From the NCBI GenBank assembly GCA_034434155.1, contig DAOUAC010000033.1, forward strand, positions 15,217-79,216: a DNA stretch of 64,000 nt, given 5' to 3'. Numbering within the stretch: position 1 is the stretch's first letter; every line of letters begins with the position of its first letter. Under the pieces are notes generated by a model that did not search any database, had not been told where the DNA came from, and worked only from the letters and a program-made list of their open reading frames with translations. Both the position numbers and the translations under genes were made by a program. Shown piece by piece: positions 44,753-61,664 of the stretch. This DNA comes from Anaerolineaceae bacterium. GTDB taxonomy: Bacteria; Chloroflexota; Anaerolineae; Anaerolineales; Anaerolineaceae.

Positions 44753-45142
44753 CTAGATGATGATCTGCACCAGAATCGAGGTCAGCACAATCCCAATCTC
44801 AATGCCGGCCACCGTTAGAATACGCCTCATCAGCAGCCCCCTGGCCCGCCCCTTGCGAAAATAGTAATCTATGGTCACAATCGCGGCCACAACCAGGCAG
44901 GCCAGGATAAAAATGGCGGCATAATCCATCGTGGACACGGCATAAGTCGTATCCAGGTCGGGGCCGGTTCCGCCGCGCTTACGAAAGGCTTCGAGACTGG
45001 TGACCCGATACCAGACCAGGACGTCTAACAGAGCCTCGCGAATATACAGAGCATCAAGGATAGCGCCTGCCGAAGCCGCCAGCCACGCCAACCACTGGCC
45101 TACAGAGACCAGCCAGCCAGCGCGCGATTCTCTTAACGTCAT
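44753..45142 (-). CDS. Small multi-pass membrane protein, unknown function
   Basis: ATG 45142 with AGGAG 5 nt upstream, and this RBS overlaps the oppF-like stop. 3-4 predicted TM helices. Confidence 0.5.
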   Translation of the reverse strand: MTLRESRAGWLVSVGQWLAWLAASAGAILDALYIREALLDVLVWYRVTSLEAFRKRGGTGPDLDTTYAVSTMDYAAIFILACLVVAAIVTIDYYFRKGRARGLLMRRILTVAGIEIGIVLTSILVQIII

Positions 45143-45150
45143 GGCATCTC

Positions 45151-46197
45151 CTAATCGCTTTTTCCAACAATCCCCCGTAGTTTCAGTTCGCCGGCAAAAT
45201 GGCAGGCAGACCAATGCTCAGGGAAAACTTCTCTTAAAGGAGGGACCTCTCTGGCGCAAATATCTTTGGCGTAGCGGCAGCGCGGGTGGAAGTAACATCC
45301 AGAAGGCGGGTTGATTGGGCTGGCGACCTCGCCGGGCAGCTTGATAGGGCGCTCGCGTTTGCCAGGGTCAGGCTTAGGGACAGCCGCCATGAGGGCTTCG
45401 GAATAAGGGTGCTGTGGCGAGTAGTATAGGTCTTTGGTTGAAGCGACTTCCACCAGACGGCCCACGTACATCACCGCCACCCGCGTTGAAATATGCTCCA
45501 CCACACTCAGGTCATGGGCGATGAAAATATACGTCAGGTGAAAGTCTTGCTGCAAGTCTTCAAGCAGGTTCAGCACCTGCGCCTGAATGGACACATCCAG
45601 GGCCGAAACCGGCTCATCACACACCACCAGCTTGGGGTTCATCGCTAAGGCGCGGGCGATGCCGATGCGCTGGCGCTGGCCGCCCGAGAAGGCGTGAGGG
45701 TAGCGGCTCATATATTCCGGGCGCATCCCAACCACCTTCAGCAGTTCCGCCACGCGATCCTGCAATTCCTGGCCAGAGGCAATCTTGTTCAGCAGGAGCG
45801 GCTCGCCAACGATACGCTCCACCGTCATGCGCGGGTCGAGTGAGGAAAAAGGGTCTTGAAAGATAATCTGCATATTCTGCCGGATCGGCTTCATCTGCTT
45901 ACGATCCAGGTTTTCCAGGTTCACCCAACCCTGTTTAGGATCGTTAAAGCGAATTTCGCCAGCCGTCGGGTCCATCAGCCGCACGATCGTGCGCCCGGCA
46001 GTTGTTTTGCCACAACCGCTTTCACCGACCAGGCCGAGGGTCTCGCCAGAGCGCACAAAGAAATCTAACCCATCAACGGCTTTGACCACACCGCGGCCTT
46101 TACGGATCATCCCGCCGCGCACCGGAAAGTACTTTTTCAGTCCCTTTACCTCTAACAAAATATCGTCTTTTGAGTTCGTCACGGCCTGATCGGTCAT
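45151..46197 (-). CDS. Opp/Dpp-type ABC transporter ATP-binding protein (F-like)
   Basis: Walker [10 protein letters not shown], signature FSGGQRQR, Walker [13 protein letters not shown]-terminal oligopeptide-type domain with GCYFHPRC. Confidence 0.93.
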
Positions 46198-47252
46198 TCT
46201 TCCACCTCATCTGAATATAAGAAACATCGCACGGTATGGCCCTCTGCCACCCGGGTGATCGCCGGAACATGGACATCGCATTTTCCCGGCATATACGCGG
46301 CACAGCGCGGATGGAAGGGGCAGCCGCGAATATTGGCATATGGATCAGGCACAATTCCTTTAATAGGCTGTAAGCGGGTATGTACCCCGCTGCCGGCATG
46401 TGGAATGGAATTGAGCAGCGCCTGGGTATAGGGGTGCTTGGGAGTATAGAAGATAGGTTTAACCTCAGCCTGCTCGACCACCCGTCCCAGGTACATCACT
46501 GCTACATAGTCGCACATCTGCGCCACAACGCCCAGGTTATGAGTGATGAATACAATCGTCATGCCAAGCTCAGCTTGCAGATCACGCATCAGGTCCAAAA
46601 TTTGGGCCTCAGTCGTCACATCCAACGCAGTGGTTGGCTCATCGGCAAACAACAGCGATGGGTTGCACGAAAGTCCCATGGCGATCATGGCGCGCTGGCG
46701 CATCCCCCCGCTGAGTTCGTGCGGGTAGCGTTTAAAGATCGCCCTGGGATTTGCCATGCCTACCTGATCGAGAATGTTGATGGTGCGCTTCTCGGCCTCG
46801 CCCTGATCCACTTTCTGGTGCAAGACAATGGCTTCGCTGATCTGCTCGCCGATGGTATAGGAGGGATTGAGTGAAGTCATCGGTTCCTGAAAGATCATTG
46901 CCAGTTCGGCCCCACGAATCTGGCGAATCTCGCTCCCCATGGGGTCCAGGCTGGTCAGGTCAATCTCCTCAACCACCTTACCAGAAGCACCGCCCCGTTT
47001 GCGGCTGTAGAGAAGAATCTCTCCTTTAACGATCTTGCCGGGGCGCTGGACCAGGCGCATGCAGGAGAGGGCCGTAACACTCTTGCCGCAGCCGCTTTCA
47101 CCAACCACGCCCATCACCTTGCGGGCGGGGATGTCAAAACTCACCCCATTGAGGGCCTTGGCTACGCCGATATCCGTGTAAAAGTAAGTGTGCAAATCTT
47201 TAATGCGCAGAATGATATCGCCTGCGCCATTTGTCCCCATTGGGTTGCTCAT
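46194..47252 (-). CDS. Opp/Dpp-type ABC transporter ATP-binding protein (D-like)
   Basis: Walker A GESGCGKS, signature LSGGMRQR, Walker [13 protein letters not shown]-terminal GCPFHPRC. 4-nt overlap with the next gene. Confidence 0.93.
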
Positions 47253-47410
47253 GTCTCTTCCTCGCCTCCAAGAATTGTCTCATTCGTAAACCGGGCGTGG
47301 CTCCACCAACCCTAAAATCAACATCATTATATAAAAAAACGATCACCCACCTCGTCCCAACGGTAGTAGTACGCCAGTCTGGCTCAAGCGATTCCCAGTT
47401 CATCGCAGTA

Positions 47411-59852: not shown

Positions 59853-59862
59853 GCGGCTGAAA

Positions 59863-59911
59863 AGCAGGCTGCTGTGCCAGACACGCAAAGCGCCCGGCAT
59901 AGCAGCCTGCT
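59863..59911. terminator. Hairpin between convergent GH172 D and the secreted-protein gene
   Basis: 11-bp stem agcaggctgct/agcagcctgct, extendable by about 5 more pairs. Confidence 0.55.
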
Positions 59912-59933
59912 CACTTCATTTATCTATATCTAT

Positions 59934-61664
59934 CTAATTGCAGCCCGGCAGCTTAAAGCTGATGATGCGCGTCTGCCAGCCGGCCAGGCTGGTCGCCTGC
60001 CCCGCTGCCGTGTAGTACTCATTCACGTACCAGAAGGTGCAGTCGTCCACCGGGTCAATGTTCATCGAGGTATAGTCGCCCCAACGTGAGTTGGTCGTCA
60101 GTTGCACGCCAGATCCGCTAATCCCCACGCCTTCGCCCAGGGTCATCTGCCCCAACGGGTCGCCGGCCAGGCGGCCCGTGTAACGGATACCGGGGAAAAC
60201 ATTCACGCCGTTGACCACGCTGTACCCCACCGCCATATTGCCCATCTTATCCTGGGCAATGCTGCCCATCCAGCGGTGAACGCCATCCCCAGGGGCATAG
60301 GTGCCCTGCTGGTAGAGTGAGTAGACGCCGTTAACGCGGCGGATCTCGTACCAGCGCACGCCTGCCACGCCCGGCAGTGCCTCGACCGACTGGTTCGTCA
60401 CCAGGGTCTCATAATCCTTAAAGTTGCGGTAGGCCAGCCGCCAGGTAGGCCGCTGGCGATATGAGAGGATGTCAAGATATTGGGCAGGGTTGGTGATGCC
60501 GGGCTGGGGCAGACAGTCACGCGAGGTGGGCGCGCACGGGAAGATGGAGTCAAACTCGGCCACCGGCAGTTGCGCGGCCAGCGTCAGTGAGGCTGTCGGA
60601 GTACTTCTCCACTTCACATCTAGATTAAAGATGTTGAGGGCGTCAAAGGTGGCTCCATAGAAGGCATCATCATCCTGCGTGCCGACAATGGGCGCGGGCG
60701 CATCTTCTTTGGGTTTCTGCTTGCCGTCCACATCCGCCGGCAGCAGCCCGTCACCTACCAGCGGCAGGATGGCCGGGTTGTTGCCATCCAGGAAGAAGCT
60801 GACGGCGCGCGCCTTGGTTAGCCCATCAATCATCTTGTTGCGTTCCAGGGCGTACACGCCAATGCCATATTCAATCGTTGGCCCGAACTCGCGCGTGGTG
60901 ATAATGTAACTGTCTTTCCAGACGCCGTACTTGGGATAATCTGGGAAGTTGAAACCGGTGGTGAAGGCGTAGCGATAATAAGCGCCGGTCGGATCGCCGG
61001 TTTGCGAAATGGCGACGCAGTTGTAGAACGGCAGAGTCGAGTCATCCAGACCGCGCGTGGTGAACTGTGACAGCAGCCAGCGATCGGCAAATTGATCGTA
61101 GAGGACAATCGGATCGCCGGAAGGGTCGGTGCAGTCGGGAATCGCGAAGCCCTGCCACAGCGCGCCGATATCCACCGGCCCCAACAGCAGGTCGCCCGTC
61201 TTAGAATACACCGCAAAGACCAGGTTGATCATCTCTACATAGTGGTTCGGCCCCACGTCTCCCACCGGGTCGGGCGGATTGACGCGGAAGCCAAAGACGT
61301 TGAAGTTATCCTGATTGCTCAACCCATCAAAGTTCGCCAGCGTACCAGGAATGGATGCAGCAGCCGGGGCGCTCTGCAAGGCGTCATCGCCCTGATGAGA
61401 TTGATGATCTGTGCCTGCCCGCGGCCCGCGCTCCGGTCGTACCTCCTCAGCGTCCGGCCTGGCAGACCGCTCCGCACGGTAATTCTTTGCCAGATCGCGC
61501 AGAGGCGAGGTTTTATCAAACGCCACGTTATCTGAAAATTTCGGCTGCGGCTCTTTGGCCGCCGGCGCAGCCTGGGCCGCGCCAAACAGTGTTACAACCA
61601 GCGAGACAGCCGCCAGCAGCAGCAGTCCTGTCTTCGCCCGAACAGCCCAACGGTGCAAAAACAT
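59934..61664 (-). CDS. Secreted protein of unknown family (possibly beta-propeller/sialidase-like)
   Basis: Signal peptide (LLLLAAVSLVVTLFGAAQA), PPDPVGDVGPNHYVEMIN and SRWGDYTSMNIDP motifs. 576 aa. Confidence 0.6.
   Translation of the reverse strand: MFLHRWAVRAKTGLLLLAAVSLVVTLFGAAQAAPAAKEPQPKFSDNVAFDKTSPLRDLAKNYRAERSARPDAEEVRPERGPRAGTDHQSHQGDDALQSAPAAASIPGTLANFDGLSNQDNFNVFGFRVNPPDPVGDVGPNHYVEMINLVFAVYSKTGDLLLGPVDIGALWQGFAIPDCTDPSGDPIVLYDQFADRWLLSQFTTRGLDDSTLPFYNCVAISQTGDPTGAYYRYAFTTGFNFPDYPKYGVWKDSYIITTREFGPTIEYGIGVYALERNKMIDGLTKARAVSFFLDGNNPAILPLVGDGLLPADVDGKQKPKEDAPAPIVGTQDDDAFYGATFDALNIFNLDVKWRSTPTASLTLAAQLPVAEFDSIFPCAPTSRDCLPQPGITNPAQYLDILSYRQRPTWRLAYRNFKDYETLVTNQSVEALPGVAGVRWYEIRRVNGVYSLYQQGTYAPGDGVHRWMGSIAQDKMGNMAVGYSVVNGVNVFPGIRYTGRLAGDPLGQMTLGEGVGISGSGVQLTTNSRWGDYTSMNIDPVDDCTFWYVNEYYTAAGQATSLAGWQTRIISFKLPGCN

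Follow-up and report, generated by a model that had tools for sequence, protein, structure and literature searches.

The window analysed here is a 64,000-nt stretch of a contig of an Anaerolineaceae bacterium (GenBank assembly GCA_034434155.1, contig DAOUAC010000033.1, positions 15,217 to 79,216), and all coordinates are counted from its first nucleotide. At 44–62 kb it contains a locus in which four genes for paralogous proteins of glycoside hydrolase family 172 (GH172, DUF2961), designated P1 to P4, are interleaved with the genes of an Opp/Dpp-type ATP-binding cassette (ABC) importer, including its substrate-binding protein (SBP), and with a gene for a LacI-family regulator. The gene order, read from the list of open reading frames (ORFs) of the window, is that of an initial annotation made from the sequence alone, and the gene boundaries are identical in independent calls on the same public contig (JGI 3300007072, Ga0073932_1000593). 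The main genes are the following (lengths in amino acids, aa; Tat, twin-arginine translocation):

45151–46197, minus strand: OppF-type ATPase, 348 aa (NCBIfam DppF/OppF-type, E 1e-105 to 1e-120)
46194–47252, minus strand: OppD-type ATPase, 352 aa (NCBIfam OppD/DppD-type, E about 1e-90; ABC_tran and oligo_HPY domains)
47472–48572, minus strand: GH172 paralog P1, 366 aa (PF11175, E 2e-95; PDB 8IC8, E 8.5e-99)
48598–49701, minus strand: GH172 paralog P2, 367 aa, with the strongest divergence at the -1 subsite (PF11175, E 7e-83; PDB 8IC8, E 2.5e-89)
50940–52091, minus strand: OppC-type permease, 383 aa (OppC_N and BPD_transp_1 domains)
52109–53092, minus strand: OppB-type permease, 327 aa (BPD_transp_1; 75–79% identity across related loci)
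53270–55399, minus strand: family-5 (Opp/Dpp-type) SBP lipoprotein, 709 aa, with a Tat signal (PF00496, E 2e-54)
56433–57518, plus strand: GH172 paralog P3, 361 aa, an ExoMA1-like predicted exo-alpha-D-arabinofuranosidase (PF11175, E 2e-101; PDB 8IC8, E 3.6e-148)
57626–58693, plus strand: LacI-family repressor, 355 aa, the middle gene of the operon P3-LacI-P4 (PF00356; Peripla_BP_1/3/4)
58716–59852, plus strand: GH172 paralog P4, 378 aa, with an insertion of roughly 40 aa (PF11175, E 3e-86; PDB 7V1V, E 6e-80)

The initial annotation had placed four GH172/DUF2961 ORFs here, which the full-model matches to PF11175 and the independent gene calls bear out; the importer that it described (a Tat-lipoprotein SBP, two permeases and two ATPases) was recovered by Pfam and NCBIfam searches and motif reading, and its single LacI regulator by the PF00356 and Peripla_BP domains. 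It had also named the GH172 proteins as the only catabolic enzymes, in agreement with the finding that the scanned ORFs of the 64-kb window contain neither a further glycoside hydrolase nor a sugar kinase or isomerase (six ORFs, read from N-termini or ORF size as UvrB, Mfd, ClpB, EF-G, ProS and PNPase, lay outside the domain scan).

Profile searches clearly indicate the relationship of P1–P4 to GH172: PF11175 is matched end to end by each of them, and the newer Pfam models GH172_1st, GH172_dom and GH172_2nd also match according to precomputed annotations. The four proteins share 39–60% pairwise identity. P3 can be aligned over its full length, with 61% identity, with the cytoplasmic enzyme ExoMA1 of Microbacterium arabinogalactanolyticum (PDB code 8IC8), which is also the best solved match of P1 and P2; the best solved matches of P4 are alphaFFase1 of Bifidobacterium dentium (PDB code 7V1V) and then BACUNI_00161 (PDB code 4KQ7). 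From the full-length identity of 37–61% to solved members, P1–P4 are predicted to adopt the double jelly-roll fold of the family, in which the active site lies at the interface of a trimer-based oligomer. The N-termini of all four proteins contain no hydrophobic or positively charged leader, and the alignments with ExoMA1 begin at its residue 4, which is consistent with the lack of signal peptides noted initially.

The residue roles established for alphaFFase1 include W267, E270 (acid/base), E291 (nucleophile), D292, Y187', W298 and G299, and the Y187A substitution nearly abolishes the activity of this enzyme (PMC8605356); in ExoMA1, Asn253 blocks fructofuranose, namely its C1 hydroxymethyl group (PMC10509167). 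The corresponding states in the window paralogs were taken from a motif-anchored reading and HMMER alignments, since MAFFT misplaced Gly299 of alphaFFase1. Counterparts of W267, E270, E291 and D292 are retained in P1, P2, P3 and P4, and the motifs W[WY]GEG and GTEDYF are invariant when the paralogs are aligned to 7V1V and 8IC8. The shared motif blocks described initially are present, except that P2 reads DNGTEDYF, with DNGTED where the others have GTGTED. The position after W298 is occupied by Asn in P3 (GGAWN, corresponding to Asn253 of ExoMA1), so that P3 is the only one of the four with the ExoMA1-type residue; it is Gly in P1 (GGAWG, corresponding to Gly299 of alphaFFase1) and Cys in P2 and P4, matching the arabinofuranosidase Dg79 and BACUNI_00161. 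At the position of Tyr187, P1 has Phe and P2 has Ala. P4 (motifs WYGEGD and EDYFNTAYC) was placed in the branch of alphaFFase1, BACUNI_00161 and Dg79.

These states are kept in the orthologs of each paralog checked in related loci (denoted below by L and a number), among them the Gly of P1 in L005, L006, L088 and L089, its Phe in L005 and L006 (those checked), and the Ala of P2 in L005 and L006. The neighbour-joining (NJ) tree of GH172 proteins contains four orthogroups and a fifth one without a member in the window. The ortholog-conserved residue states and the orthogroup tree thus point to paralogs that are old, individually maintained, predicted to be catalytically competent and diverged in their subsites; their linkage or sugar specificities are probably complementary. 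The GH172 repertoire of the clade exceeds four: proteins of the fifth orthogroup (GGS[FY][DN]W in the W298 region) and a 696-aa GH172-containing protein, neither of which occurs in the window, are encoded at L088 8515–9600, L089 8656–9741 and L092 17527–19617.

Every GH172 enzyme characterised so far cleaves alpha-D-arabinofuranosides (PMC10115798, PMC10509167, PMC8605356), and because, in addition, three paralogs are close to ExoMA1 and P3 has the Asn253 state, alpha-D-arabinofuranosyl oligosaccharides are regarded, with restrained confidence and from homology, as the probable main substrate. The initial annotation had left the substrate unknown; the resemblance of P3 to ExoMA1 and its fructofuranose-excluding Asn narrow the choice. 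A different assignment, in which the same kind of import-then-hydrolyse regulon would serve alpha-D-fructofuranosides (difructose dianhydride I (DFA I), inulobiose-type compounds, fructan anhydrides), as with alphaFFase1 of B. dentium, draws on P1 and its orthologs, in which the Gly would leave room for the C1 hydroxymethyl of fructofuranose (PMC10509167), on alphaFFase1 being the best solved relative of P4, and on the B. dentium operon, which also combines LacI, an ABC importer and GH172 (PMC8605356). However, P3 retains the blocking Asn, ExoMA1 is the nearest solved enzyme for P1, P2 and P3, the Cys of P2 and P4 is that of Dg79 from Dysgonomonas gadei, whose enzymes have no DFA I activity (bioRxiv 10.64898/2026.08.13.744632), and neither an inulobiose-splitting GH32 beta-fructofuranosidase nor a fructokinase is found among the scanned window ORFs, which makes fructofuranosides distinctly unlikely as the substrates of the locus.

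The state of P2 bears on yet another explanation, namely that the locus acts on a furanosyl or other glycan not described as a GH172 substrate, derived from the own envelope of the organism or from community neighbours, with at least one paralog of new specificity. The P2 orthogroup stands out by an Ala in place of Tyr187 and by the DNG that replaces GTG ahead of the nucleophile; the clade has its five orthogroups and the 696-aa form; GH183 and GH116, the usual partners in D-arabinan degradation, are absent from the scanned ORFs; and even in the D. gadei model system the preferred substrate of Dg71 is still unknown (bioRxiv 10.64898/2026.08.13.744632). This explanation has to be set against the uniform alpha-D-arabinofuranosidase activity of the characterised family members and against P3, which shares 61% identity and the specificity residue with a strict D-arabinofuranosidase, and it is considered unlikely. 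Scavenging of alpha-D-arabinofuranosyl oligosaccharides is the reading preferred below.

The importer is a complete set of the Opp/Dpp type (PepT family), composed of a family-5 SBP, two BPD_transp_1 permeases (one with OppC_N) and two oligo_HPY ATPases. According to sequence reading, the N-terminus of the SBP carries the Tat motif SRREFL and the lipobox LFAAC; a look-up with a TTG start (713 aa) gave no match, and the ATG start yielding 709 aa is the true one by the gene call. The nearest solved structure, 5IPW (E 3e-69), has no named ligand, and the closest of the solved relatives whose ligand is named bind sugars (E 1e-49 to 1e-10); these include SPH1118 (pectin oligosaccharides), AgpA (alpha-galactosides), a chitin-oligosaccharide binder and mannoside binders, whereas the peptide binders OppA, DppA and MppA match far more weakly (around 1e-8). 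The NCBIfam peptide equivalog models also remain far below their cut-offs (the best, Opp4A, at 92 bits vs 650). The nearest named-ligand structures are in keeping with an oligosaccharide as the ligand of the SBP. Oligosaccharide binders of the same SBP family 5 (SPH1118 of Sphingomonas, AgpA of Sinorhizobium, the chitin-oligosaccharide binder of Vibrio, the mannoside binders of Thermotoga) show that Opp-type systems import sugars, but none of the solved relatives of the window SBP is known to bind furanosyl oligosaccharides.

The synteny check proposed in the initial annotation showed that the genes are not scattered, the linkage being kept in six further contigs: all seven contigs with an SBP at least 59% identical (the window, L092, L005, L088, L091, L006 and L089; 59–81% identity of the other six to the window) carry three to five GH172 genes beside the SBP gene, and most of the six also carry a LacI gene. 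When 185,579 species-representative genomes were scanned with an SBP alignment, 80 loci with an SBP identity of at most 55% were obtained, and in none of these 80 is a GH172 gene found within 10 kb, so that the expectation of GH172 genes beside distant SBP homologs was dropped. The GH172-linked SBPs are monophyletic in the NJ tree. The GH172-less loci share a module composed of the genes for the SBP and OppBCDF, a small membrane protein, a Zn-ribbon protein and a 162-aa protein; even there, the permeases and ATPases are 66–82% identical to those of the window, and the SBP about 50%.

The comparison also sheds light on the splitting of the transporter genes. The transporter module is unsplit in L006 and L089, where it lies downstream of the GH172 and LacI genes, and in the window, L005, L088, L091 and L092 the order is SBP-OppBC, the 162-aa gene on the opposite strand, and a pair of GH172 genes, followed by the ATPase genes directly (the window), further off (L091) or beyond the fetched range (the other split loci). 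Since the module is unsplit in L006, L089 and the GH172-less loci, the recurrent split order appears to be a derived arrangement of the clade. An assembly or annotation artefact was ruled out as the cause of the split by the recurrence of the order in L005, L088, L091 and L092. The locus fits the description of an accessory one, as proposed initially, with flanking genes that are different in every related genome.

Several further features of the related loci were recorded. Between the window and L006 (ENA ERZ25039483 contig_13868), the identity is 83–91% for the GH172 proteins, 85–86% for OppD and OppF, 78–79% for OppB and OppC, 77% for LacI, 60% for the SBP and 50–62% for the three accessory proteins; either evolution has been faster in the extracellular and accessory parts, or exchange has affected portions of the module. 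On the contig of L005 (JGI Ga0645780_00335), the neighbouring segment L090 (1–4412) holds a second LacI gene together with genes for an isomerase (Fucose_iso_C, 469 aa), an aldolase of class II (F_bP_aldolase) and a protein with DUF4432. The GH172 genes are flanked by genes for a mannitol-dehydrogenase-like protein and a Zn-dependent alcohol dehydrogenase; the L090 operon lies about 200 bp past these two and some 3 kb from the closest GH172 gene, and possibly represents the operon for downstream pentose catabolism that the window lacks. Five GH172-less loci (L013, L015, L032, L074, L082) contain, within the fetched range, a gene for a GH38 alpha-mannosidase of about 1030 aa, in three of the five just 3' of the accessory genes, and nine contain a Gfo/Idh/MocA oxidoreductase gene near the transporter. 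The GH38 neighbours give a hint that the sister SBP clades also serve the uptake of oligosaccharides, possibly mannosides. Two of the neighbour clusters in GH172-less loci proved to be wrong-strand artefacts.

The two AT-rich spacers of the locus contain three sigma-70-type promoters with complete (12/12) TTGACA-17-TATAAT boxes, and one copy of the 14-bp palindrome TGWAWACGTWTWCA lies 7–15 nt past each of the three -10 boxes, with another copy 192–250 bp downstream in a long leader. The predicted regulatory features are the following:

56100–56148, plus strand: 12/12 promoter (56100–56128) and exact operator TGAAAACGTTTACA (56135–56148), driving P3-LacI-P4
56327–56340: second operator, exact match TGAATACGTTTTCA, in the P3 leader, 192 bp 3' of the first
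55897–55953, minus strand: 12/12 promoter (55953–55925) and exact operator (55897–55910), driving SBP-OppB-OppC, within the 72-nt repeat D4
55647–55660 (exact) and 55690–55703 (two mismatches): downstream operators in the SBP leader
50010–50066, minus strand: duplicated 12/12 promoter (50066–50038) and exact operator (50010–50023), driving P2-P1-OppD-OppF and possibly the small membrane protein gene (mem132)
49781–49794: second operator, exact match TGAATACGTTTACA, in the P2 leader, 229 bp 3' of the first
50873–50932: inverted repeat I22 (25-nt arms, 88% complementary, 10-nt loop) between the convergent genes for the 162-aa protein (orph162) and OppC

Six sites match TGWAWACGTWTWCA exactly and seven with at most two mismatches, all of them within the two intergenic regions of the locus; the numbers expected by chance are 0.06 and 0.69, respectively, and none of 100 shuffles reached the observed counts. 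The promoter-operator module occurs nowhere else in the window. The two copies of D4, at 49999–50070 before P2 and 55886–55957 before the SBP gene, are 81% identical, and the duplicated promoter and operator would keep the split importer functional in the window. The inverted repeat likely represents a bidirectional terminator separating the two transporter operons. The same TTGACA-17-TATAAT-operator module is found in the divergent GH172 promoter regions of L006 and L089, and no TGWAWACGTWTWCA site with at most one mismatch was detected in any GH172-less locus scanned.

Palindromes of 14–20 bp with a central CG are the form typical of LacI/GalR operators, and the core AAACGTTT resembles the operator of E. 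coli RbsR. The LacI-family protein of the locus (PF00356, E 9e-18; Peripla_BP_3, E 1e-40) has RbsR and CytR as its best NCBIfam matches, both below the cut-offs, and orthologs in L006 (77% identity) and L089. Its candidate target at the locus includes the operator TGTAAACGTTTTCA and its partners; that this protein binds the TGWAWACGTWTWCA palindromes is suggested by adjacency and co-occurrence only. The pairing of operators 192–250 bp apart suggests repression by looping. The implied 5' leaders (49702–50031, 55400–55918 and 56135–56432), each holding a second operator, are unusually long, about 300–520 nt; a stem-loop is present at 49864–49884 in the P2 leader, and no known riboswitch emerged when the long leaders and spacers were compared with Rfam, which gave only sub-threshold miRNA noise.

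The regulatory arrangement bears on the view that the adjacency is a coincidence, the Opp-type system importing peptides or another solute and the GH172 genes being unrelated neighbours. The transporter module (OppB and OppF 75–82% identical) and the three accessory genes do occur without GH172 in about 80 Chloroflexota and other genomes, and the SBP is labelled 'peptide/nickel transport' in source databases. Nevertheless, both transporter operons and the GH172/LacI operon have in common a promoter-operator module confined to the locus, P2 and P1 precede OppDF in one transcription unit, the seven close SBP relatives are all GH172-linked and form their own clade, and the nearest named-ligand solved SBPs bind sugars; coincidence is therefore highly improbable. 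That the enzymes and the transporter constitute one functional unit is well supported by the shared promoter/operator set, the conserved linkage, the SBP clade and the sugar-binding SBP relatives.

The best explanation of the locus, judged probable, is a single LacI-controlled regulon that scavenges alpha-D-furanosyl, most probably alpha-D-arabinofuranosyl, oligosaccharides. The general scheme, in which the SBP binds an oligosaccharide, OppBCDF imports it, the cytoplasmic GH172 enzymes hydrolyse it and LacI repression is relieved, is proposed with considerable confidence. The Tat-exported lipoprotein SBP of the dedicated subclade would capture an alpha-D-furanosyl oligosaccharide, likely originating from D-arabinan fragments of Mycobacteriales cell walls or similar glycans; OppBC and OppDF would bring it into the cell, where four cytoplasmic retaining GH172 exo-glycosidases would remove terminal residues, releasing the monosaccharide. 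Among them, P3 is expected to be strictly specific to D-arabinofuranose, like ExoMA1, P1 contains the Gly that lets alphaFFase1 accept fructofuranose, P2 would have an altered -1 subsite and P4 belongs to the branch of Dg79 and alphaFFase1. In the absence of the inducer, the repressor would occupy the palindromes overlapping the three transcription starts and the second downstream sites, with looping, and would shut P3-LacI-P4, SBP-OppBC and P2-P1-OppDF together; the sugar or a small oligosaccharide would relieve the repression of all three operons. The core of the initial proposal, import followed by stepwise cytoplasmic trimming by specialised GH172 enzymes, is supported by the operators, the linkage, the SBP clade and the SBP structures; the identity of the sugar and the division of labour between the paralogs, as well as the operator-binding protein and the looping, are what we infer.

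A number of observations weigh against D-arabinan oligosaccharides as the substrate and against the regulon as drawn. The scanned ORFs of the locus and the window contain no match to GH183 (DUF4185) endo-D-arabinanases, no GH116 subfamily-4 exo-beta-D-arabinofuranosidase and no D-arabinose isomerase or kinase, and therefore beta-capped mycobacterial arabinan could not be fully degraded by the locus alone; most simply, the organism would scavenge alpha-linked fragments that the endo-arabinanases of others set free, or the missing genes would be located elsewhere in the genome. The sugar is deduced from homology at the level of 37–61% identity, the Gly of P1 and the affinity of P4 to alphaFFase1 make alpha-D-fructofuranosides possible substrates, and the Ala of P2 at the Tyr187 position suggests a specificity outside what is known. 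Constancy of the ligand is not guaranteed, since the SBP is 60% identical between the window and L006 and the GH172 proteins are 83–91% identical, and the binding of LacI to the palindromes is, as said, a deduction from adjacency and co-occurrence. On the other side, a fucose-isomerase-like protein dominates the proteome of D. gadei grown on D-arabinan (PMC10115798), and the L005/L090 operon with LacI, the Fucose_iso_C isomerase and the aldolase near the GH172 genes may point, if weakly, to D-arabinose.

Taken jointly, the divergent features could also be read as follows: at least one paralog (the best candidate being the P2 orthogroup) would have a GH172 specificity not yet known, the SBP clade would be the first Opp-type binder of furanosyl oligosaccharides, the pathway would be of an Anaerolineae type for a glycan that is neither mycobacterial D-arabinan nor a difructose anhydride, and the three accessory proteins would be a previously unrecognised add-on of an ABC importer; this combined reading is entertained as a tentative and rather doubtful one.

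The initial description of the system as undescribed was overstated, since precedents for its parts have been published (PMC8605356, PMC10509167, PMC10115798, bioRxiv 10.64898/2026.08.13.744632). An importer feeding a cytoplasmic GH172 enzyme has been proposed for both M. arabinogalactanolyticum, with an induced cluster encoding an ABC importer and a cytoplasmic GH172 (PMC10509167), and B. dentium, with a scheme of LacI control, an ABC importer and a GH172 that has no signal peptide (PMC8605356), and Krupovic et al. noted that DUF2961 proteins are associated with ABC transporters and solute-binding proteins and are abundant in Chloroflexi (PMC8812541). The inducible Microbacterium cluster, with its signal-less cytoplasmic exo-enzyme ExoMA1 and an adjacent ABC importer proposed for arabino-oligosaccharides, is the source of the closest relative of P3 (61% identity, the same Asn253), but it belongs to an actinobacterium, not to a member of Chloroflexota, and has one GH172 instead of four; unlike it, the window locus has no GH183, GH116, isomerase or kinase among the scanned ORFs. 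The window importer is of the Opp/Dpp type (SBP family 5). The B. dentium operon (PDB 7V1V; PMC8605356) resembles the window in its LacI, ABC importer and signal-less GH172; E291, E270, D292 and W267 of alphaFFase1 are conserved in the window paralogs and Gly299 is shared by P1, but this operon has one GH172 together with a GH32, acts on DFA I/inulobiose, and its GH172 is 37–46% identical to the window paralogs.

In D. gadei, three GH172 paralogs with distinct and complementary linkage preferences are encoded in one locus (PMC10115798; bioRxiv 10.64898/2026.08.13.744632). Like the window, this locus, PUL42 (Dg67/Dg71/Dg79; PDB 8AH3), contains divergent GH172 paralogs with shared catalytic Glu residues and differing surrounding residues (P4 is only 43% identical to Dg79); there, the alpha-1,5 and alpha-1,3 preferences have been shown by experiment. 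Further genes of PUL42 code for endo-arabinanases and for an enzyme resembling fucose isomerase. All four GH172 enzymes of the window are cytoplasmic. PUL42 is a polysaccharide utilisation locus of Bacteroidota, for which SusC/D-like uptake rather than an ABC importer is presumably to be expected. The novelty of the window locus lies in the combination of four to five orthogroups, an importer of the Opp type whose SBP belongs to a dedicated clade, the lack of endo- or beta-acting enzymes in the locus and the Chloroflexota host; no published description of such an arrangement was found in the literature searched.

The other genes at 44–62 kb include three that accompany the transporter and one secreted neighbour:

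44089–44697, plus strand: Zn-ribbon protein, 202 aa, with N-terminal CxxC...CxxC (weak Zn-ribbon Pfam matches)
44753–45142, minus strand: small membrane protein (mem132), about 129 aa, 3' of OppF (no Pfam match)
50371–50859, plus strand: PsbP/Mog1/DUF1795-fold protein (orph162), 162 aa, cytoplasmic (AlphaFold 2 model, Foldseek)
59934–61664, minus strand: secreted protein sec576, 576 aa, next to nuoN (no Pfam, NCBIfam or PDB match)

The 162-aa protein was initially regarded as an orphan, yet it has at least 259 homologs in a conserved family, and its gene occurs together with that of the transporter SBP in 23 other, GH172-less loci. Its AlphaFold 2 model (predicted local distance difference test score, pLDDT, 90) matches CyanoP (PDB code 2XB3) in a Foldseek search (E 5e-7). 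As its gene accompanies the transporter with or without GH172, the protein can be considered a transporter accessory that is not GH172-specific, with a predicted cytoplasmic PsbP/Mog1/DUF1795(Eag) fold. Homologs of the small membrane protein are encoded directly 3' of OppF in L006, L007 and L089 and were found in 17 scanned loci; 17 scanned loci, and also L006 (62% identity), have a linked Zn-ribbon gene. The PsbP-like, small membrane and Zn-ribbon proteins may constitute an unrecognised accessory module of the ABC importer. A 33-nt stretch with 73% identity is present at 44035–44067 and 50287–50319, 40–70 nt upstream of the Zn-ribbon and PsbP-like genes, which are adjacent and co-oriented in other genomes; both copies contain the identical 12-mer CCATGCTATACT, resembling an extended -10 box, which suggests that a promoter was duplicated during the rearrangement of the module, a post hoc suggestion, exact 12-mer repeats being not rare in 18 kb.

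The protein sec576, counted initially as a member of the locus, has no match in Pfam, NCBIfam or PDB, profile search included, and no GH172-linked counterpart was found in L005 and L006 by tblastn or in the gene tables of L088, L089, L091 and L092; it is an unrelated neighbour of the GH172 locus. Its family is large (7858 matches at E<=1e-5; 15,356 clusters at 50% identity, E<=1e-3), and the best 120 matches, all 71–79% identical, come from Anaerolineales, Roseiflexaceae, Terriglobales and others. A roughly 480-aa all-beta domain, often N-terminal to Ig, cadherin, PKD, DUF11 or dockerin modules in proteins of up to 3465 aa, looks like a large unannotated extracellular domain family; the AlphaFold 2 model, built from a shallow alignment, has a pLDDT of 39, too low for use. 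The candidacy of sec576 as the missing endo-acting enzyme was rejected in view of the lack of a domain match, its absence from the related GH172 loci checked and the spread of the family across phyla. The remaining genes of the window look housekeeping (among others, Peptidase_M50, Pth, MoxR/VWA and MurE by Pfam; UvrB, Mfd, ClpB, ProS and PNPase by ORF size and N-terminus). A homolog of the lipoprotein intramolecular transacylase Lit (PF07314) is encoded at 20121–20855 on the plus strand, in what is presumably a monoderm-like Chloroflexota genome, and is unrelated to the locus.

Mycobacterial and related cell walls have D-arabinan as their signature polymer, and GH172 is, to our knowledge, so far the only family with a firm link to alpha-D-arabinofuranosidase activity. 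No new category of system is opened here, as published precedents exist for all elements of the logic of the locus. The regulatory layout, with three promoters and paired operators, is clean and predictable, and so directly testable; the SBP is a candidate for the first furanoside-binding SBP of the Opp type, and the diverged active sites of P1–P4 form a natural set in which GH172 specificity could be mapped. If the proposed reading is true, the scavenging of D-arabinan or a relative of this polymer would extend beyond Actinomycetota and Bacteroidota to uncultured Chloroflexota.

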